DNA of 64,000 nucleotides. Origin: Anaeromyces robustus. Lineage: Eukaryota. Both the position numbers and the translations under genes were made by a program. Below are positions 110 through 12,270 of the stretch, one piece after another. The DNA lies in NCBI GenBank assembly GCA_002104895.1, contig MCFG01000014.1, positions 62,001 to 126,000 of the forward strand. The letters are read 5' to 3'. Below the pieces are notes generated by a model. That model did not search any database. It was not told where the DNA came from and saw nothing but the letters and a program-made list of their open reading frames with translations. Position 1 is the first letter of the stretch, and every line of letters starts with the position of its first letter.

Positions 110-3100
110 TATATTATTATTATTTTAAAAAAGTAGTTTATTTTTCTTTCTTAAGGTGGTTAAAAATTAAAAATATATCAAAAGTATATTTTATAAAATA
201 TATATTATGTGATTCTCTGAGTAACAAAAAAAGTATTTTTTTTTTTAATTTTAATTTAATTTAATAATTCATTTAAAAAATATATATATGTGATTTTATA
301 TATAATTTCATATTTTTATTATTGACATTAATCCATTTATTGATAATTTATTTGTTAATATGGTATAAAATTTTTTAAATATAAAAAAATGGTATATTAT
401 TTAAACAGTACTAAAATTAAATAAAACTTTTTTCTATGAAAAAGAATAGTTTATGTTTCAATAAAATATAAATAAAAAAACAGTTTATATATATTAATAT
501 TCTTAAAATGTAACACTTTAATAAATTATTTTATATTTGATAATTATTTAAAGTACTAAAAATGTTTCTTCATTTCTATCGTTTTATATTTATTATTAAT
601 TATTTCTATTTCATAGAATTTTTTTTTTTTTTGTATATTTTTTATTTTATTATTTTTTTTTTTTTTCTTTAGAAAAATTTTAGATTTAAATAGTTTAAAA
701 ACTATTTAAATGTTACAAATATTACATAAATTAAGAATTAATTAATAATATATATAAATATAATTAATTAATATAAATATTTGTATTACTTATATATATT
801 AATTATATTTATCAATATTATTTATTTTAAAATTAATTTTTTTTTTTTAACTTTTTTTTTTTACTTATTATTTTTTTTAATGCAAATAATATTAATGTAA
901 ATCTTTTTTATTATTATTATTTGTTTTATAATATTACAATATAATAATAAATTAGTATTATAATTATATTTGTTATTATTATTATTATTATTATTTTATT
1001 ATTATATTGTTATTATTATTTGAATAAACAAACAATTCATTTTTTTAATAGACTTAGCAAATAATATAAATAATAAAAAATCAAATCTAATATATATAAA
1101 TATAAAGTAATATACTATAGTTATATATTTAATATTATATGAAATTATGCATGAATGTTGATTTATTAATCATATTTAGTAAATGTTTAAATATAATTAA
1201 GCAATAAAAAAATTAACAAGAATAATATAATTAGTATTTAGTCTTCATAATAATTAATGATAAAATATAGTTTCAATATAATAAAATGAGATAAATTAAT
1301 AATAAATATTAAATAAATAAATAAATACATTAATAAATACATAAATGTTTTTATATTTTTTTTATTTCATTTTATTTTATTGCTTTTATCATTGATAATC
1401 ATTAGTCTTAAATCATATTTATTTTATTTTTTTTTAACTGCTTTAATGAATATAAATATATATATATTTTTTACTATTATTCAAAAAACCATACTTGTTA
1501 AGCAACAAGCTTTAATTTATATTTTATAAAAAAAAATAATAAATAATAAATTAATTTAATTAAAAAACTCATAAATGGAAACATTAAAAAAAATTATATA
1601 TATAATTAATTATATTAATATATATTAATATATATTATATTTTATCATTGAAATATATTGTAATGTATATAATTAAATTAATAAATAATGGAAACTATTA
1701 TAATATACAATTTAATAAATAATATTTCTTTATTTCTTTCTTCACCTTTTTTAATTATATTTATTAAACTCTATAAACAAATTATTGATTATTGATATTC
1801 TCTTTTATAAATAAAACAAAACAAAATAAAATAAAATTTAAACCAAATAGAAAATCATTTTTAAAAACAAAACAAATAAAAAAATAAAAAAAAATAAAAT
1901 TTAAACCAAATAGAAAAATTAATATTTACTAATATTTTTATATTTTTATCAATAATCAAAAACATCATTCTGATCTCATTGTTTATATTAACATATTTTA
2001 TAAAAGGTTATTTTTTATTTTTATAAAATATGATTATATTAATATATCATATAATTTTATTCTATGACATTGAACAGAATAATATAACAATTAATATTAA
2101 GAATAAAAATAAAAATTAATAACAAGTTATTAATTAAAACAATAATATTTAAGTTTATTGCTATTAAAATACTTTCTCTTTAGACTAAATTAAACAATTT
2201 ATTTCTATCAATCTCCGTTTATCCCGAGATAAAGTAATAATTATATATATGACAGAATGATAATTAAATATATCAATCTAAATATTTTTTAATTATTAAA
2301 AAAATTATTTATATCTTCAATAACAAAATTATTTTTTTTAAAAAAAAAATAAATTAATCACATTATTTTACTTAATTTACCTTCATTTTTAACTAATTTA
2401 TATTATATTGTCTATTGTTGTTACTTTCCACCTAATTCCGAGTAACAATTGTGTAATAATTTAAAAATTAGAATAATAGTAAACAAATTACTTTTTTTCT
2501 ATATATAAATACAAATATAATAAATATTTTTTATTTATTTATTTATTTATAGTTATATATGAAAGTTAATTCTATATAAAAAAAATTTTTTTTTTAATTG
2601 TCGTTTTTATTCCTAATTATTTTAAGAAGTATTTTATAATGAATGAACTTTATGGTTTTTTATATGTAATACTAAAAAAAAATAATTAATAAATAACATT
2701 TAAATATTTATTGTTTATATATATAATATTTATATAAAATTTTATATAATATTTATTATTAATTATCCTCATTTTTTTTTAGGTAAATATATTAGCTGAC
2801 TATTCTCTACTTTTGTTTTTAATTTTGCATTTAATCCTGAACTATTAAAAAAATTTTTTTTTTTATTTTGTATAATTAATTTCAGATTAAAATTTTAATT
2901 TTAACTAAATTTAAATTAAATTTGAAAATTTTAAAAACTTTTATTAAAAATAAATAAATAAAAAAATTATATTCTTATTATATTACATTATAGTAATAGT
3001 AATATATAATTAAATATAATTAATATATAATAAATTATATTTTAATAATAGAGTAAAATATTTGTTTATAAATATTATTTTTTATTTAAAATTTAGGAAA

Positions 3101-3582
3101 CATTAGTGAATAAAATAAAATCTTTAGGAATTATGGCAATTTAATTATACTATGACAAAACCTTGTTTTTATTATTTAAAATTAAAAACAAAAAAATAAA
3201 TAAATAAATAAATATAAATGAAAGTTTATTATAATTTTTTTTTCTTTTTCAATAAAAAAATATAAAAAACAAAATATAACAAATAAATATTGCATTAAAA
3301 AAAACTGGTAATATAGAAAATATAAAATTTTTCTCAACTTTAATATAGTGAGTAAATAATTAATGATGTGGAGAAAAATAAAATACATTTAAATAAATAT
3401 CTTTATAATAAATATCGTATAGAAAATTTTTATATTGATATACTAAAAAGAAAATATATAACACTATAATTTAGTAAAACTAACTGTTAATTACATATAA
3501 TACCAAAATATATATATAAACAGAAGATATATAATTATAAATAAATTTATATATTCGTATATTTATATCATTATTTATCATA

Positions 3583-3643
<61 letters not shown>

Positions 3644-3707
3644 TGATAGTATTTATTTCATATTTTATACAATTATACTTAATTATTATTGTTAATTTGT
3701 CATTAGT

Positions 3708-3741
<34 letters not shown>

Positions 3742-3967
3742 TAAAAGAAAATTATATCAAAAAGTGTGGGGAAATCTTGTTAATATTTTTAATATAAAAA
3801 TATTAAAATAATTATTAATCATGCTTTTACATATATATTAAATACTAAAACAGTTCTTTTTATACTTATTAAATTTATTATTTTTGACCTCTTTTTTCTT
3901 CCATGTTAATATTGTTCTTAGTATTATCACATGTTTAATTTGTATTAATTTAGCTTTTCATTAATCA

Positions 3968-4429
3968 TCATACATTTTCTTTTCTCAATTTCTCAATCTC
4001 TGCAATTAAAAATGGATCTTTTTCAGGGATATAATCATAATTAGTAAATGGATTATGTGTGTAATTGTCTTTTCCAGACAGTAATTTATAAACTAACCCT
4101 TCATATGTCTCAGTGCAATCATATTTCCACGGTTCAGAATTAACTCTATAGTATAAATATCCTAAGAAACGGTAAGGATTAGGAATCTTTCGCGAGATTT
4201 CACAATTATAATTCCAAAAAAGGTTTGCAAAATTGATAGTAGTATCGCTTGTAAGGCAAGAACCTCTCATATATTGATCAATAGCACTGAACATTTGTTC
4301 CCAACCATACTTTTCAACTGTGCTGTCATATAGGTTTTGAAATTTTTCTTCTTCTTCATCAGAAAGTTCATCATCCCATCTGCGATTGAATAAAGAATCT
4401 ATTACTTCTTTTAAAGCTTGATTACTCAT
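3968..4429 (-). CDS. Intronless hypothetical protein (153 aa from MSNQ, 157 aa from the upstream ATG at 4441); bacterial-like, candidate horizontal transfer
   Basis: Non-repetitive, aromatic-rich globular ORF with no introns and higher GC than its flanks. GGAGGT lies 4 nt before ATG-AGT-AAT. Confidence 0.75.
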   Translation of the reverse strand: MSNQALKEVIDSLFNRRWDDELSDEEEEKFQNLYDSTVEKYGWEQMFSAIDQYMRGSCLTSDTTINFANLFWNYNCEISRKIPNPYRFLGYLYYRVNSEPWKYDCTETYEGLVYKLLSGKDNYTHNPFTNYDYIPEKDPFLIAEIEKLRKENV

Positions 4430-4431
4430 AT

Positions 4432-4545
4432 TTACCTCCATTTAAATTCTTTATTAAATACATTTGGAATGATTTCATATAACTTTCTTAGTGCTTCATA
4501 AACCTTATTGAAGAATTGTCTCTTAATTCTCGCTTTTATTTTAAT
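4432..4545 (-). pseudogene. 3' remnant of a possible upstream bacterial-type gene (IKIKARIKRQFFNKVYEALRKLYEIIPNVFNKEFKWR*)
   Basis: 37 stop-free codons ending TGG AGG TAA, which overlaps the SD and stops 2 nt before the next ATG. There is no start codon. Confidence 0.45.
4434..4439 (-). promoter_or_regulatory. Shine-Dalgarno-like GGAGGT (relic bacterial ribosome-binding site)
   Basis: Minus strand reads TGGAGGTAAATATGAGT, a consensus SD close upstream of the ATG. G-rich hexamers are rare in this background. Confidence 0.6.
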
Positions 4546-4932
4546 TTAATAATTAATCCTAATTTAATTATTGACCTTTTCAATTATATCTCAATTTTGA
4601 AAAAAGGATTTAAAATTGAAATAATAAAATAATTCAAATATTTTTTCTAAAAAATTTATATTAAAATCCATGAAATTTAAAATAAATTATATACAATTAT
4701 TTATTATTTATACAATTATTTATTATTTATATGGTTAAAATATTTTTACAAGATATTCCAAAAAAAGTATATATTTTAAATATTTAAACATATTTAATTA
4801 ATTAATCCTATTATCCAATCATATTCATTGATTTCTCATTTTACTTATTTATATAACAATTATAAATAATATATTACATATGTAACAGTTAAATTTTTTT
4901 TTGATGTTGTTTATTTAAAACTTTTGGTAATA

Positions 4933-5122
4933 TAGGTTTTTGAAATGAAAAAAGTGCCTATTTAATTCCTCAAATTATTTAAAACTTCAGGTAGTATAAG
5001 TTACTTCTTCATAATAGGCATAAAAAATACAATTATTTGAACTTACAATTTTCAAACTTTTGTAATTCACTTGGTAAATTAATTAGAGAAATTAAATAGG
5101 TACCTTTTCCTTTCAAAACCTG
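4933..5122. repeat. Imperfect ~45-bp inverted repeat (foldback / MITE-like)
   Basis: Left arm taggtttttgaaatgaaaaaagtgcctatttaattcctcaaatt versus reverse complement of 5081-5122, caggttttgaaaggaaaaggtacctatttaatttctctaatt. Confidence 0.6.
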
Positions 5123-5488
5123 AAAATACTTTTGTTGTTCTATAATTGTTAGATGTATATTCCAATTGGTTTCATTATAATTTCCTTTAATATTTTCAAA
5201 TTATAATATACATCTTTAAATTAAATTATATGATAGAATCAAATTTATATTTTCCTTTAATTTTTGTTATTGGAATTTCATATTTTGTATTAATATATAT
5301 AGTTCGATTATTTGCATAATAATAATTAATTCCACAGTAAATATTATCATATATATATATACATAATTTAATCTTACCATAATGAAATGTTTGTCATAAT
5401 ATAATTCTTTAAGAGATTCTTTTGGTATTTCAATTTAAATTTCATCAACAAGCGTAGAATTAGCTTAGAATAATAATTTGTATTCCAT
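5035..5488 (-). pseudogene. Degenerate coding relic of unknown family
   Basis: Reads MEYKLLF*ANSTLVDEI*IEIPKESLKELYYDKHFIM|GTAAGA, then YCGINYYYANNRTIYINTKYEIPITKIKGKYKFDSII*, then FENIKGNYNETNWNIHLTIIEQQKYFQVLKGKGTYLISLINLPSELQKFENCKFK*. Protein-like but broken by stops and a frameshift. Confidence 0.35.
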
Positions 5489-6607
5489 TTAAGGGTAAAA
5501 AAATTAAAAAGTCTTCAACCTACTTTTGTTTATTTATTTTTATATTACTTTATTTATTTGTTTATTTTTATATTCTTTATAATATAATTAAAATATTAAA
5601 AAACATAAAATAAATATGATTATTTGATGTTAACAACACAAACTTTGAAATTAATTAGAACAAACTTCAAAATATTCAATAATTATTGTATGTTATATAT
5701 TATTTTGATATTTTTATAATTTCCTATAATTTAGTTATAATTATTATTCTTTTTTTTTTTTTTCTGTGATTTCCTATAATATTTTTTATATTAAATATTA
5801 GTATTTATATCAAATATAAGAAATTTTGATAACAATATATAAAAACTATTAAAAAAATTATAATATATTCACTTTTTAAATCATTCTAAATGTGCGTGTG
5901 TTTTTTTTTTTTTTTTTTAATATTTATGGACTTTAAATAATATTAGTCACAAATTTAATTTAGAATTAAGATAAGTTCATATAAAATAAATGGAAAATTC
6001 TAAATATTAGGACAAATATAGAATTAAGATAAGTTCATAAAATAAAAAAAAAATTAAAATTTTTTCTTGTATTTTAATTTTATATATATATATTATTAAT
6101 ATAATAAAGTTTTAAATAAATTTTTTTGTATTATTATTATTTAATATTATAATTTTTTGATTATAATGATTTTTGCTATAAAAGAATTGTAAAAAAAAAA
6201 AAAAAAATAGTTTCCTTAAAAGTTCTTTATAAAAAAAAAAAAAATATTCTTTCAAATAATTTTATTAACACTTTATATTATGTTTGAAATGTAGAAATGA
6301 ATAATTATATATAACATACATTAATATAATAAATATATAATGTTTTTTTTGTTTTTATTTTTTTTTTATTTTATTAATATCCATTAAGAGACAAATAAAT
6401 TAATAAATAAATTAATAAAAATTCTATTTAATAAATAACACTTCATTTTTCTATTGATATATATAAATAATAAATAATAATAAAATAAAAAGAGATAATT
6501 TATTGTAAAAATAATATTATTATCAATAATTGTATATATGTTTGCATTCTATTATATTATTATTGAAATTATTATATTCTACTTATTTTTTTCTTGAATA
6601 ATATTAT

Positions 6608-9600
6608 TTATACTTCTCCTTCATTATTATCATTATTATCATTATTATTGTTGTTGTTGTTGTTGTTGTTATTGTTGTTATTGTTATTGTTTGTTGGTAT
6701 ATCGTTGTCTGATGATCCATAATCAATCATCAACGGATTAGAATTAGGTGGAGGTGCTCTTCTATTTAATGGCTGATTAAAATCTAAAGGATTACCATAA
6801 TAATCAAAAGATGGTGTATTTATATAATTCATATCTGGTGGTAATGGATTCATTGCATTTGCCATAGGATCCATTTGCATTGGCGGTAGTCTATAATTTG
6901 GTAATGCCGATGATGGTATATTTTGATTATAATAATTACCATAAAATCTTCTTCCTCTACCGCCTCCACGATTATTAGGTGGATATGGTTTATATGGCAT
7001 AGGCTTTCTAACCGGATAATTCTTATAACCTGGTTGACCATAAAATCCTTTCTTTTGTGGTGGTTGAGGTTGACCACGTTGTAACGGTTCATATTCCATA
7101 TTATTTAAATCTGCTGGTCCTGATGGAGGATTTTTGTTATCATTTAATTTTCGTTTTCTATTTATTATATAATTGTTATTATTATTGTTGTTGTTGTTGT
7201 TTATTTTTATATCATACATATTGTTTTAAAATAATTATAATAATTTTAATTATTATTAATTATTATTAATACATTAATACATTTGTTTGATATATATACA
7301 ATATTAATATTTATATAAAAATAATTACCTTTCATTTCCTTTTTCTTTTTTCTTATTTTTCAAATTCTTTTTATATTCTATTTCTTTTTCATCATCTGAA
7401 AATTCAATTTCCTATTTTATTATTATAAATTTAAAAAATATATATTTATATATATAATATATTAATAAATAATGAATTAAAAATTATAATATATTTTAAA
7501 ATCAATATAAAATATTATTTATTTATTTATTTATTTATTTTTTCTTTATTTAATTTAATATAAAAATTTACATCTTCTCCTGGTTCTTCATCATATTGGT
7601 TAGATGCATCAGATCCTTTTATTAATTTAATTTGTTGGGTATATGATAATTTTGCAAGTTCAGGATTGAAATATACATCTGTTCCAATTTTATACTTTTC
7701 TTTATCAATCTCACCAGCACTATTAAATCTAACAGAATAGATTGGTAACGATACTGGACCTAATGTTTCAAAAATCTATTATTATTATTATTATTTATTA
7801 TATTATTATTATTTATTATTATTAATATTATTATGACATTTTTAATTTCAATTTTTTTTTATTATAATTCTATATATAAAAAAATATAAATATATATTTT
7901 ATTTTATTAATGAAATTGGTTTATTATATTACTCTTCCAACTGGTGTTCTATCGTTGAATAATAAAATACTATCTTCATCCAATACCTGATAATTTCCAG
8001 ATATAGTCGCTTGAACTAGTACATATTCATCAACAATATTTTGAATTACACCAATTTTTGTAATTGGAATATCTTTAGGAATATCTATTGTAATTGGTTG
8101 AACTTTTGGTAATGACTAAATTGATTTAAAGAAGAAAAAAATAATATAAAAATAAAACCAATTAATATAATTATTTATAATCAATAATTATATAATTGAA
8201 AAATGAATAAAAAATAAATAAAACAGAATGAAAAGAAATACTATAATATTTTATAAATACATACGATAATTTCATGAGTAGAATGTATTAAATTTATTGT
8301 ATTATCATCATTTTCATCGTCAAGATCTTCATTATATTTATCAATTGTTTTTTTGTGTTTTTCAACTTTTTCTTTAGTTAAAACACCATCCTCACTTGAA
8401 GAATCACTTTTTTATTATTTATTATTTGTTATTTATTATTTATTATTTATTTTTTATTATTTATTATTTGTTATTTATTATTTATTATTTATTATTTATT
8501 ATTTATCATTTATTATTTATTATTTTTTTTTTTTTTTTTTAAATTTATATAATTTATAAATTATTTTTTAGTTATAATATTTATATCATTTGGTGTCATT
8601 TTGTTTTATATATACATATATATATATATAATTATATATAAAATTAAAAATTTTATTAAATTATTTTTATATATCTAATGTAACTTTAACTAAATAAAAT
8701 ATATCTTCAATTATTTTAATATGTTTTATATAAAAAAAAAAAAAAACTCTTTAAAAATATATTATCTTTATATTTCAACATACCTATCATCATCTGAACT
8801 ATCGGTATCAAAATCACTTGAACTATCTGAATCACTTGAGCTATCTGAATCACTTGAACTACTATCACTATCATTATCACTACTACCACTATCACTATCA
8901 TTATTAGTGGTTTCTTCTTTATTATCTTTATTATTATCTTTTTCCGTTTCCTTTTCTTCATTATCATTTTTAAGTTCTTTTAAATTATCAATGGTATCAT
9001 TATTTTCATTATTTTCAACATTCGATATTTCTTCACTTTTAATATTTAATGAACTATCATTTGAAAAATTTTCATTAACTTTTAATTCACTTGAAATGCT
9101 TTCTAACGATTCTTCTTGTTTAATGTCTTCTAACATAGTTGAAATGTTTTCTGCTGATTTTTCTTTGTCATTGTCTTTTACTTCTGATGAAATTTCTGTT
9201 ATTTGTTCTTTTTTTTCTATATCATTTAAATCTGATAAAATATTTTCTTCTGAATTTTCTTCTTTATTTTCCTCTATTTCATTTAAATTATCTTTTAATA
9301 TATCTTTATCCTTCTTTAATTCATTTAAAACAGATTCAGAATTATTTGAAGCGAAATCTTTTTCCTTATTATCATTTATTTCTTTAGATATTAATTTATT
9401 AATTGAATCAATTTCCATATCAATTATTTCCCCTTCTTTAGTAATTTCATCATCAATTGTTACATCAACCATTTCATCTATGTCATTTGCAATTTCCTTC
9501 AAACTTTCTTTAATAAAATCAATTTCATTAGATTCTATATTATCTGCTTTTATATTCTTATTTTCTACATTATCAATTTCATTATTAGTTTTAACTTTTT

Positions 9601-9688
9601 TTTCCATTATTGAACTTTGAACTTTTTCTTCTGAAGCTGTTTTATTTTCTAGAACATCTACTTTCTTATTATCATTATTGTTTTCCAT
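6608..9688 (-). CDS. NAF1: H/ACA RNP assembly factor Naf1 (Gar1/Naf1 domain), 6 exons: 9688-8784, 8406-8265, 8115-7933, 7775-7572, 7411-7329, 7157-6608
   Basis: Spliced GT-AG exons give an acidic N-terminus, then IGVIQNIVDEYVLVQ..VLDEDSILLFNDRTPVGR-IFETLGPVSLPIYSVRF and the Naf1 hallmark KGSDASNQYDEEPGED-EIEFSDDEKE, followed by a Pro/RGG-rich tail. Exon phases are compatible. Confidence 0.92.
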
Positions 9689-12270
9689 TATTATCTTAAT
9701 TTTACTGAATGGATTTCCAAATTGGAAATTTATTAAAAAAATTAATTTATAAATAAAATTTTTAAATTTGAAATCTTTTTTTTTATAATATATATATAAT
9801 AATAATAATACACTGTTATTTTTACTTTGTTGAAAGATATTATGACAGCTTTATATAATAATAAATACAAAAAATAAGATTAAATTTCTATTTTAATAAT
9901 AATTATATATTAATAAATAAATTATAAATTAATATTGAAATAAAAACTATAAAAAAATTAATATAAAAATTTTAAATATTAATTTTTAATTTTCAAAAAA
10001 AAAAAAAAAAAAATATTATAGTATTTTTTTTAAAAAAAAAAGAGAAATCAATAAATTTGATTGGTTAATTGGTCTAAATAAATTAAAAAATATTAATTAT
10101 AATTTTTTTATAACCTTTACTAAGCATTTATTTATTTTTAATATTATACATAATTATTCATTATTATAATAAAAAATTTTAGTAATAATAATTTTTTTGA
10201 AATAATCAATATCATAATTATTTATTCAATTAGATTTAGTAATACTAATTAATTTATTGGATTATATAAAATGTTGACATTAAATATTTTATTTTTTTAT
10301 ATTTTCTAATAGTAACGATTTATGAATTTGATACATCTAATTAATGTATATAATTTCTTTGTTATTAATGAAGAAAAATTAAAATATGTTATTAAATAAT
10401 TCACCATTAATTAATAAAAATAAAAATAATTAAAAAATATATTTTTCAATAATGATAAAAATATTAAATCTAAATTAAACATGAGAAAATAAGAATGAAA
10501 AATAAATTTCCAATATTTACTAATATAATATTTATTATAAATGAGCCAAAATAAAAAAAAAATTTAATAAATATTTTATAATAATTTACACAATATAAAA
10601 ATGATGATAATAATTGTGTTTAAACAATTATATAAATAGTACTAATATACAATTTAGAAAGGTTAAAAATTGAGTATTTTAAAAATTCCAGTATTAAGAA
10701 GATTTATATGAAAATTAAATCATTTTGAACCATTATAATATATATTTTATCGTAGTTATAGCAATAAAAAAAAAGGATTTTAATGTCAATTGGATAAATA
10801 TATCTTATTATAAAATAAGTGTTTTAAATGTCATAAAATATAATAAATAAAAAAGAAGAAAAATTATATAATATCATAATCAATAAACGATATTAATAAA
10901 TTTACTAATAAATTATCATCAATTTTAATAGATCTTATAATGAATTCATTTCAAAATATGAATTGTATGATTGCACCAATTATTAATTATTATCATTAAA
11001 TTAAAGATATCTCTTGATAATTCTAACCCATTAATAATTAATTATAGTAATAATAACAAAAAGAATTAAACAACATTATATATTAATAACAATTACAAAA
11101 AAATAATATAAATAATAAATATCAATACAAAATATAATAGTTTATATTTTTTATCATTTTTATTTTATTTTAATTTTATTTTATTTTATAATATATTATT
11201 TATTTATAATTTTATTATTTAATATTTTTTATTATTTGACAAACAAAAGTATATTTAAAAGTATTTAACATAAAATAATTATTAAATTATTGGATAAATA
11301 AATTAGCAAATTAAATACTATATAATAAATGAATGAATTTGACAAATAAAATTCAGCATGGCATATTATTTTTATTATAAATGGCTTTTGAAAATAAAGT
11401 TTACATAACAATTATTATGATAATAATTGATTAATAAAATTTTTTATAATTATGGACTTTTTAAACTTTTAAAAATATATGAAAAAGTTAAACATATTAA
11501 TTTAAATATCCTTTATTTATAATAAATGGCTGAAAAGTTGTAAATAAAATATATATGTATATATATAAGAATTTGAAATTCAATATATAAATATACATTT
11601 TATTTTGTTTTTTTACAAGCTTTTCTTTAAATTTTATTTAAAGTTTATAAGATTTATTTTTAACTCTTGACTAATCTTTTTTTAGTAATATGATTAATAA
11701 AAAAAAGGACAATTAGAAATATACAATTATTAAAAATAATAAAAAATGGATTTATATTAATAAAAAAGTATTAATATATTTTATTAATACTTTTATTTTA
11801 TAAATATTTATTATTCTCTTGTAGAAAATACGATTCTGTTAATATTATATATATACTTTTGTTTATTTGGATTATTATATAGGCATATCACTTAAAAAAT
11901 ATTTTTCCTTTATTTACTATGATTATTAGGATTATATAAAAATATTTTAATATAGATACTATAAAAATTTTTTATCGTGATCATAAATCAATTTTATTTT
12001 TTCAAACTCCTATTGAAGTTGTAATTTCATACGTTACATTAAATGATACATAATATTTTAATTATATTTATAATTATTGTTATTTATTTAAATTTTAATA
12101 TAAATTTTATTAATTACTTTTTTTTTTTTAATTAATTTTTTTTTTTTTCATTTATAATTTTAATTTATTTTTTTTTTTTTTTTTTGGTAAAGTGATGATA
12201 TTATCCTTTTATGGAATAATTAATTTGGTAAATATATATGAAATAATATTTAAAATATTGAAGTTTGTAA

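Follow-up and report, generated by a model that had tools for sequence, protein, structure and literature searches.

The junction of a bacterial operon, with a putative immunity gene, in the genome of the gut fungus Anaeromyces robustus

Gut fungi are well known to have taken up bacterial genes, and one immunity gene, PoNi, was earlier proposed to be among those acquired. Here, a 64,000-nucleotide stretch of the genome of Anaeromyces robustus (GenBank assembly GCA_002104895.1, contig MCFG01000014.1, positions 62,001 to 126,000 of the forward strand), hereafter called the window, is analyzed. On its minus strand lies an intact, intronless open reading frame (ORF) of 153 codons, which is directly preceded by the 3' end of a bacterial gene with an embedded Shine-Dalgarno (SD) sequence. 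The family to which the 153-aa product belongs is called C, and the gene that lies upstream of it in bacteria is called B.

The closest described case is the PoNi (DUF1911) immunity gene, which has been reported from four gut-fungal genera (Rizvi et al., bioRxiv 10.1101/2020.10.15.341461). According to the available text of this preprint, PoNi resembles the fungal C gene in being a bacterial immunity gene without its toxin, with over 70% identity to rumen Firmicutes, located on native contigs, transcribed and proposed to protect against toxins. The two differ in family and in partner: none of 61 aligned C members matches DUF1911, and the toxin of PoNi is PoNe, whereas that of C would be an undescribed domain. 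The available preprint text mentions no operon, upstream remnant or SD sequence, whereas the fungal C locus keeps both the 3' end of the putative toxin gene and the SD. A homolog of Imm51, also a predicted polymorphic-toxin immunity family obtained by horizontal gene transfer (HGT), has been found in Caecomyces (Murphy et al. 2019, an HGT survey, according to the available text of the Rizvi preprint). Genes acquired by gut fungi through HGT have about 31% GC on average and few introns, as stated in the available text of 10.1101/487215, and the fungal C gene likewise has 31% GC and is intronless. However, it has no Pfam match and is therefore not Imm51. Two bacterial systems are also comparable in concept. 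As in the LXG/type VII secretion pairs of Firmicutes, B can form the C-terminal part of an LXG protein (649 aa) and is followed by a small acidic gene, but most of the B genes found here are free-standing behind DUF4417 and not fused to LXG. As in the orphan cdiA-CT/cdiI modules of contact-dependent growth inhibition (CDI), a detached toxin 3' fragment stands before an intact immunity-type gene, both in bacterial loci (L033/L034 and L013, see below) and in the fungus; here, however, the module lies in a eukaryotic genome, and the gene that follows B in Cronobacter has no detectable relation to C. No published account of the locus, of a DUF4417-B-C cassette or of an SD remnant in a eukaryotic HGT was found, although the supplementary lists of HGT surveys may contain the locus. 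The capture of an immunity gene by gut fungi is thus already known from PoNi, and what is added here is an undescribed toxin/immunity family pair with an unusually explicit footprint of the donor.

The explanation proposed here, which is given a probability of roughly 0.6 as a whole, function included, is that a fragment of about 580 bp of a toxin-immunity operon from a rumen bacterium of the Clostridia type would have been integrated into a gut-fungal genome. This fragment would consist of the last 35-38 codons of B, the SD embedded in the stop region of B and the whole of gene C, which follows. In bacteria, B would be a basic domain of about 150 aa that takes four forms (free-standing behind DUF4417, fused to DUF4417, as the C-terminus of an LXG toxin and behind a VENN segment in a CdiA orphan array), while C would be an acidic helical protein that is translationally coupled to B and is its partner, as an immunity protein or antitoxin. 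After the transfer, the remnant of the toxin gene and the SD would be dead sequence in the 5' untranslated region (5'UTR). A fungal promoter within the AT-rich DNA upstream would drive C, giving an intronless mRNA of about 0.85-0.95 kb, and purifying selection would have kept the gene. Its most likely function would be the stoichiometric binding and neutralization of B-type toxins that bacterial neighbors deliver into fungal cells. The transfer with its junction fossil and the transcription of the gene are close to certain.

The operon junction and its bacterial counterpart

The features of the locus, with the evidence for each in brackets, are as follows.

3968 to 4429, minus strand: intact intronless ORF of family C, encoding an acidic helical protein of bacterial type, the putative immunity partner of domain B (ORF, homologs, structural model, RNA)
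4432 to 4545, minus strand: fossil 3' end of the putative toxin-domain gene B, 37 sense codons and TAA, now in the 5'UTR (tblastn in both directions)
4434 to 4439, minus strand: fossil SD, GGAGGT, inside the last codons of the putative toxin gene (TGG AGG TAA), 4 nt upstream of the ATG (junction identity with the reference locus)
4439 to 4441, minus strand: alternative in-frame ATG in the context AAAATGG (sequence, comparison with the reference locus)
3770 to 4721, minus strand: transcribed region, with about 290 nt of 5'UTR ahead of the ORF and, behind it, a 3'UTR whose main read boundary is near 3891 (RNA contigs, stranded reads)

The ORF runs from 4429 to 3968 (153 codons and TGA), and its product, P0001, begins with MSNQALKE and is acidic (pI 4.6; 27 Asp and Glu against 17 Lys and Arg residues). 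Upstream of it, the junction reads AAA TGG AGG TAA AT ATG in the 5' to 3' direction, with GGAGGT at 4439-4434, AAAT at 4433-4430 and the ATG at 4429-4427. The start-less tail frame (4545-4435, 37 codons, IKIKARIKRQFFNKVYEALRKLYEIIPNVFNKEFKWR) has a stop codon immediately upstream, and its own TAA stop (4434-4432) is separated from the ATG by only 2 nt. An earlier interpretation made from the letters of this DNA, the sequence-only reading, had described the ORF, the SD, the 37-codon tail, the TGG AGG TAA codons and the spacing, and each of these details is correct on the minus strand. The GC content of the intergenic DNA is 0.07-0.15 and reaches a hump of about 0.3 at 3800-4600. The in-frame ATG at 4441-4439 spans the Lys-Trp codons of the putative toxin, at a place where the reference locus has GTG, and would give an alternative product of 157 aa starting with MEVNM. 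Its context is a good eukaryotic one, so that the true start of the fungal protein may lie four residues before the annotated one.

Taken alone, the SD-like motif could have arisen by chance. GGAGG-N(4-9)-ATG occurs three times in the window where 0.38 are expected, and one of 100 shuffles reached three. In addition, the 13-mer GGAGGTAAATATG recurs at 29794-29809 on the plus strand, within a eukaryotic C2H2 zinc-finger coding region (translated as PKGGKYDEV), and this copy is a chance twin of the SD-ATG motif that serves as a negative control. Because the motif alone is weak evidence, the case rests on homology.

For this comparison, metagenome contigs were scanned with an alignment of the family, which gave 51 loci, and one locus from a genome collection brought the set to 52; 49 of these have at least 150 nt upstream of the homolog and are assessable. 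In tblastn, the 37-aa tail matches the C-terminal end (KLY..NP.LF...KWR) of the gene that directly precedes the homolog. B lies directly upstream of C in 26 of the 49 assessable loci, with the B match ending 5-41 nt before the C match begins, and ATGA-type overlaps occur at bacterial B-C junctions. One further locus with B (L039) has only 112 nt upstream, and another (L023) has a partial B 154 nt away. Conversely, the B protein of L002, a locus on a rumen contig used as the reference, finds the window at 4530-4435 (tblastn, 50% over 32 aa, E 5e-6). The 22-nt junction TGGAGGTAAATATGAGTAATCA is identical between the window and L002, and the DNA homology between them starts at about 4540 and stops at the stop codon of the ORF. 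Since the junction is identical and the tail aligns with the C-terminus of the upstream gene, the observation is above chance. Among the 13 B homologs that end in KWR, P0122 is the best match to the tail (19 of 25 residues). Its locus tag is IJS61_10410, while P0002, which is 76% identical to the product of the ORF, carries IJS61_10415, and both list a longest contig of 52,415 nt; these consecutive tags suggest that the two genes are adjacent. Both expectations of the sequence-only reading, a tail that matches the bacterial neighbor and two parts that match adjacent genes of one bacterium, agree with these results. Searches of the window with the other proteins of the bacterial cassette described below (DUF4417, KptA, ImmA and HTH; tblastn) revealed no further fossil, and an Rfam scan of 3000-5600 gave nothing at E<=0.1.

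A word-indexed search of 5.8 billion proteins returned 20 matches to P0001, the best with 76-79% identity, and the named ones are hypothetical proteins from metagenome-assembled genomes of Firmicutes, Lachnospiraceae and Abditibacteriota. The closest bacterial or rumen-metagenome relatives overall have 76-81% identity, and the sole eukaryotic relatives are from other gut fungi: only Neocallimastix proteins appeared in collections that include eukaryotic sources. These proteins (P0005, P0244, P0245 and P0246) are 78-80% identical to P0001, and their contigs measure up to 866 kb and 1.53 Mb. Three of them (P0244, P0005 and P0246) are without 7 residues, in the SKPWHYD region, that P0245 and every bacterial relative have; this is either a true deletion or an artifact of the gene models. 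An exhaustive HMMER search yielded only 98 of 1.84 billion representatives at E<=1e-3, indicating that the family is small. In 400 genomes sampled from the class of one carrier, C was matched in three, at no more than 61% identity, and the search of these genomes by DNA for a closer donor gave no donor-grade sequence. The sequence-only reading did not recognize the family, and P0001 has no match in Pfam or NCBIfam at E<=1. Likewise, Pfam applied to the 61-member alignment of C found no family common to more than one member, PHROGs and PADLOC gave no family for C, and a sequence-profile search of the PDB gave none at E<=1. A phage or plasmid vector is without evidence, because C had a single weak match in the phage collection (26% identity, on a 7.3-kb phage-like contig) and none among plasmids, and B had none in phages. 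The nearest feature clusters of the Protein Atlas are phage hypothetical proteins (0.91), which is a lead only.

In a maximum-likelihood tree of 31 rows, the five fungal rows and four bacterial rows (P0002, P0003, P0241 and P0242) form a clade with support of 99/98. This clade is nested among bacterial rows, so the direction of transfer is clearly from bacterium to fungus. Within it, the protein of the window joins a Lachnospiraceae cluster weakly (80/67), and the AU test does not reject one clade of all fungal rows (p-AU 0.097). The terminal branch of the protein (0.12) is no longer than those of its bacterial neighbors, and all nearly invariant residues of the family are retained in the fungal C. 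The gene thus combines a position within a bacterial clade and the lack of other eukaryotic relatives with linkage to eukaryotic DNA and transcription (see below). The sequence-only reading of a bacterial operon junction that arrived by DNA-mediated transfer from rumen bacteria is in agreement with homology, setting and transcription.

The bacterial cassette and the putative role of C

In L002, the genes are arranged in the order XRE-type HTH, ImmA/IrrE peptidase (PF06114), DUF4417 (PF14386, E 5e-39), B (170 aa), C and Tpt1/KptA (PF01885, E 4e-41), with the stop codon of one gene touching or overlapping the start codon of the next. Of the 26 loci with B, 22 have DUF4417 upstream, and in one protein (P0240) the two are fused. 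The DUF4417 gene of L002 (3602-4486) also matches phrog_940, annotated as nuclease, and DUF4417 is described as enriched in phages and prophages in the part of the source available. KptA, an RNA 2'-phosphotransferase, is found near C in 15 of the 52 loci, 13 of which have B (out of 27 with B when L039 is counted). It lies at 5462-6013 in L002 and also downstream of C in L001, L005, L015 and L016; in L001 and L005 it directly follows C despite the absence of B. In L013, L017-L019, L027, L028, L035-L037 and L040 it is located upstream on the opposite strand. The linkage to KptA may hint at the chemistry of B as a toxin (RNA 2'-phosphate or NAD-dependent) or at a repair function.

With a pI of 9.6, B is basic, in contrast to the acidic C (pI 4.6), and no family for B was found in Pfam, NCBIfam, PHROGs or PADLOC. 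Among 380 candidates, only two longer forms of B were observed, namely the DUF4417-B fusion mentioned above and P0239. The latter, a protein of 649 aa, has an LXG domain of type VII secretion at 11-194 (PF04740) and B at 494-643, with 74% identity. On a Cronobacter plasmid, a B of 46% identity lies directly behind a coding sequence annotated as 'VENN motif pre-toxin domain-containing protein', in an array that follows a hemagglutinin-repeat (CdiA-type) gene and has a MafI immunity gene next to it. The gene downstream of this B has no detectable relation to C. In the logic of polymorphic toxins, a domain that forms the C-terminus of LXG proteins and also stands behind VENN is a toxin domain, and the small gene behind it is the immunity gene. 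Since B is also the C-terminal domain of an LXG protein and follows a VENN pre-toxin segment, it is read as a polymorphic-toxin domain, and C, the small gene that directly follows, is read by its position as the immunity partner of B. It is quite probable that C neutralizes B in bacteria.

Further observations are consistent with this role. The bacterial cluster nearest to the fungal C (P0003, P0241 and P0242; 79-81%) is linked to the LXG-B cluster, as the locus tags follow one another (K6F97_11240 and K6F97_11245) and a 461,006-nt contig is listed for both P0242 and P0252. Tandem copies of C occur (L043, L038 and G337), one protein (P0093) holds five C-like stretches, and orphan copies adjoin transposases, restriction genes and prophage lysis genes. 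A few proteins fuse C to Sel1 repeats or to DUF7674. Truncated remnants of B before an intact C, a layout as in the fungus, are also present in bacteria (about 64 residues in L033/L034, and L013). Immunity proteins are marked by a downstream position with a short junction, by secretion or pre-toxin forms of the partner and by orphan and tandem copies in mobile or variable regions, and all of these were found for C. No profile of the known Pfam immunity families (Imm*, PoNi/DUF1911, SUKH and others) matches P0001 at E<=1. With regard to type II antitoxins, no HTH, RHH or AbrB family was found in C, and the model is a compact array of eight helices. The sequence-only reading had guessed at an immunity- or antitoxin-type partner, a guess that gains support from the fusion of B to LXG and its place behind the VENN segment.

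The predicted structure of C (AF2, 61 aligned sequences, pLDDT 94.5) is all-alpha with eight helices. Foldseek against PDB and BFVD gave nothing at E<=0.001, and the best wide VIA-align comparison (Z 7.8, rmsd 4.1, 106 aligned) points to generic helical repeats (VHS/CID/ENTH-like), which is the noise level for helical models. B is predicted to be an alpha/beta domain behind a disordered Gly-rich N-terminus (pLDDT 90.4) and has invariant His, Arg and Cys residues, while Foldseek of B against PDB found nothing. A phosphohistidine phosphatase fold (2nmm_A; Z 4.7, rmsd 3.4, 84 aligned; others at most 2.5) was considered for B and rejected as too weak to name a fold. A complex prediction of B (18-170) with the fungal C, made with alignments unused, scored 0.00 against a mark of 0.34, which counts neither way on binding.

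An alternative is that C was co-opted as a helical protein for a fungal role unrelated to the toxin, its bacterial role being that of an antitoxin in a DUF4417-B-C(-KptA) cassette that never meets fungi. The frequent presence of DUF4417 and KptA around B, the XRE and ImmA genes beside the cassette in L002 and other loci and the predicted fold, a generic helical array, are in keeping with it, but the bacterial C cluster nearest to the fungal protein is the one linked to LXG-B, B also occurs in a CDI orphan array, and the fungal C keeps all nearly invariant residues. This explanation is considered unlikely, although of the rivals it survives best.

Transcription, selection and age in the fungus

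The window is eukaryotic in content and holds ELMO/CED-12 and PH domains as well as a histidyl-tRNA synthetase split across exons, and the locus is adjoined by N-rich low-complexity ORFs. Of 24 public runs listed, 20, which come from 16 studies, contain at least half of the sampled words of 3700-4900, and six are on record as RNA. RNA contigs and reads were mapped on 3740-5100. Contigs from two studies cover 3740-4718 (X2, 1008 nt) and 3770-4721 (X4, 952 nt) with 0 differences each, and raw stranded reads (101 in X23 and 74 in X24) cover about 3880-4720, fading between 4520 and 4720. The first mates lie almost exclusively on the plus strand, which in the usual stranded library means that the RNA comes from the minus strand, on which the ORF lies. 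The reads show no joints, indicating that there is no intron. Five molecules begin at 3891, close to an ATTAAA/AATAAA signal (signals at 3939, 3879 and 3793). Given this coverage, the fossil tail and the SD lie in a 5'UTR of up to about 290 nt. Deep RNA contigs of X2 and X4 (depth 650-790) touch 4832-4874 over only 18-21 nt and then diverge. Transcription there was rejected, the matches being spurious and of low complexity, with contigs unlike the window beyond these 18-21 nt.

The tail and the ORF have diverged differently from L002. Identity at codon positions 1, 2 and 3 is 0.78, 0.87 and 0.58 in the ORF, whereas it is flat in the tail (26 codons; 0.73, 0.77 and 0.73). The ORF has 31% GC and 23% GC at third positions (GC3), against 38% and 37% in L002. 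The sites that are G or C in L002 and now A or T number as follows.

Tail: 15 of 29 (52%)
ORF, codon position 3: 35 of 57 (61%)
ORF, codon positions 1 and 2: 26 of 117 (22%)

The tail differs from positions 1 and 2 (Fisher, p=0.0026) and not from position 3 (p=0.49). It has thus lost G/C like silent sites, which positions 1 and 2 of the ORF have not, indicating purifying selection on the ORF; L002, at 68% identity, is not the donor, however, so that changes on bacterial and on fungal branches are counted together, and the tail is short. That the downstream gene has been kept intact, as the sequence-only reading proposed, is borne out by an ORF that is intact, transcribed and conserved at positions 1 and 2. 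The same reading called the transfer fairly recent. The transfer stands, but its recency is supported only in part, as the tail has A or T at some half of the sites that are G or C in L002 and the Neocallimastix orthologs have diverged (78-80% identity). So much decay, like the divergence of 20-22%, speaks against a very recent transfer, and the event need not be young.

These results also bear on the possibility that the gene is a transcribed passenger without function, captured by chance, expressed because AT-rich DNA happens to act as a promoter and not yet disrupted for want of time. The toxin tail and the SD are still recognizable, the 5'UTR carries upstream ATGs with an overlapping upstream ORF (uORF), and the tree does not establish a single origin of the fungal copies, which could be separate, younger captures. 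On the other hand, the loss of G/C at the silent-site rate in the tail and not at positions 1 and 2, the identity by codon position, intact copies in at least two further gut-fungal species, RNA in many runs from 16 studies and a terminal branch no longer than those of the bacterial neighbors all speak for a gene under selection, and the passenger is rated slightly below co-option, as improbable. An artifact of assembly, in which a bacterial contaminant read was joined to fungal DNA, is hardly credible: the sole near-complete DNA run (X1, share 0.99) may be the assembly's own source, but the homology to bacteria extends over only about 580 bp, surrounded by DNA of 10-15% GC, the RNA contigs of two studies carry the ORF together with about 200 nt and 290 nt of AT-rich flank and so speak against the chimeric join named in the sequence-only reading, GC3 has been ameliorated relative to L002, and orthologs lie on Mb-scale contigs in other gut fungi.

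Other features of the surrounding DNA were also recorded. A long (ATT)n microsatellite (3580-3640) and a poly-T run (3705-3735) lie just past the 3' end of the gene. On the minus strand, 6608-7225 and 8768-9850 hold N-rich, RGG-rich and acidic Ser/Asp-rich ORFs without Pfam matches at E<=0.001; the sequence-only reading had named the neighbor of the gene as a putative NAF1. On the plus strand, 16358-29470 is a single open frame of 4,370 codons, the first 1,881 residues of which have no Pfam match at E<=0.001.

Weighing the proposal and its meaning for gut fungi

Several points weigh against the proposal that C is an immunity protein that was captured and kept for the protection of the fungus. 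Most bacterial contexts are intracellular-looking DUF4417-B-C loci (22 of the 26), often near XRE or ImmA genes. As these are not secreted-toxin loci, C may mainly be the antitoxin of a system that is irrelevant to fungi. The tail in the window ends in FKWR, as in free-standing B, whereas the LXG form ends in NFDLTLLQ. The 5'UTR contains four upstream ATGs (4671, 4499, 4478 and 4463), and the uORF from 4478 overlaps the start; these would depress translation. The tree appears compatible with one transfer as well as with two for the window gene and the Neocallimastix genes, and the selection result carries the limits of the comparison with L002 given above. Finally, B and C have no family or convincing structural relative, and it is from context that we infer the toxicity of B, its binding by C, the arrival of B-type toxins in fungal cells and the protection of the fungus. 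This last claim, protection by C, is placed just short of an even chance.

In a broader scenario, rumen Firmicutes would attack fungi by contact-dependent B toxins, of the LXG/type VII secretion system or CDI type, with a target common to bacteria and eukaryotes, and the fungi would repeatedly have captured the immunity genes of an undescribed toxin/immunity pair. This scenario is tentative and somewhat more doubtful than protection itself. If it were true, the locus with its fossil toxin tail would be a direct footprint of the capture of an immunity gene as a heritable antidote.

The finding has several implications. The locus is a rare footprint of a donor operon, in which the toxin 3' end, the SD and the stop-start spacing are all preserved. 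Because of this preservation, it can be read that the transfer was DNA-mediated and that the source was, on the proposed reading of B and C, a toxin-immunity operon, and the neighboring gene can be identified. In addition, selection becomes readable from a single sequence, since the dead tail stands as a neutral yardstick beside the live ORF. The locus also flags an uncharacterized LXG- and CDI-associated putative toxin domain without a Pfam family, together with its putative immunity family, for experiments. As a second immunity-type gene, unrelated to PoNi, it strengthens the idea that inter-kingdom toxin warfare may shape the genomes of gut fungi.

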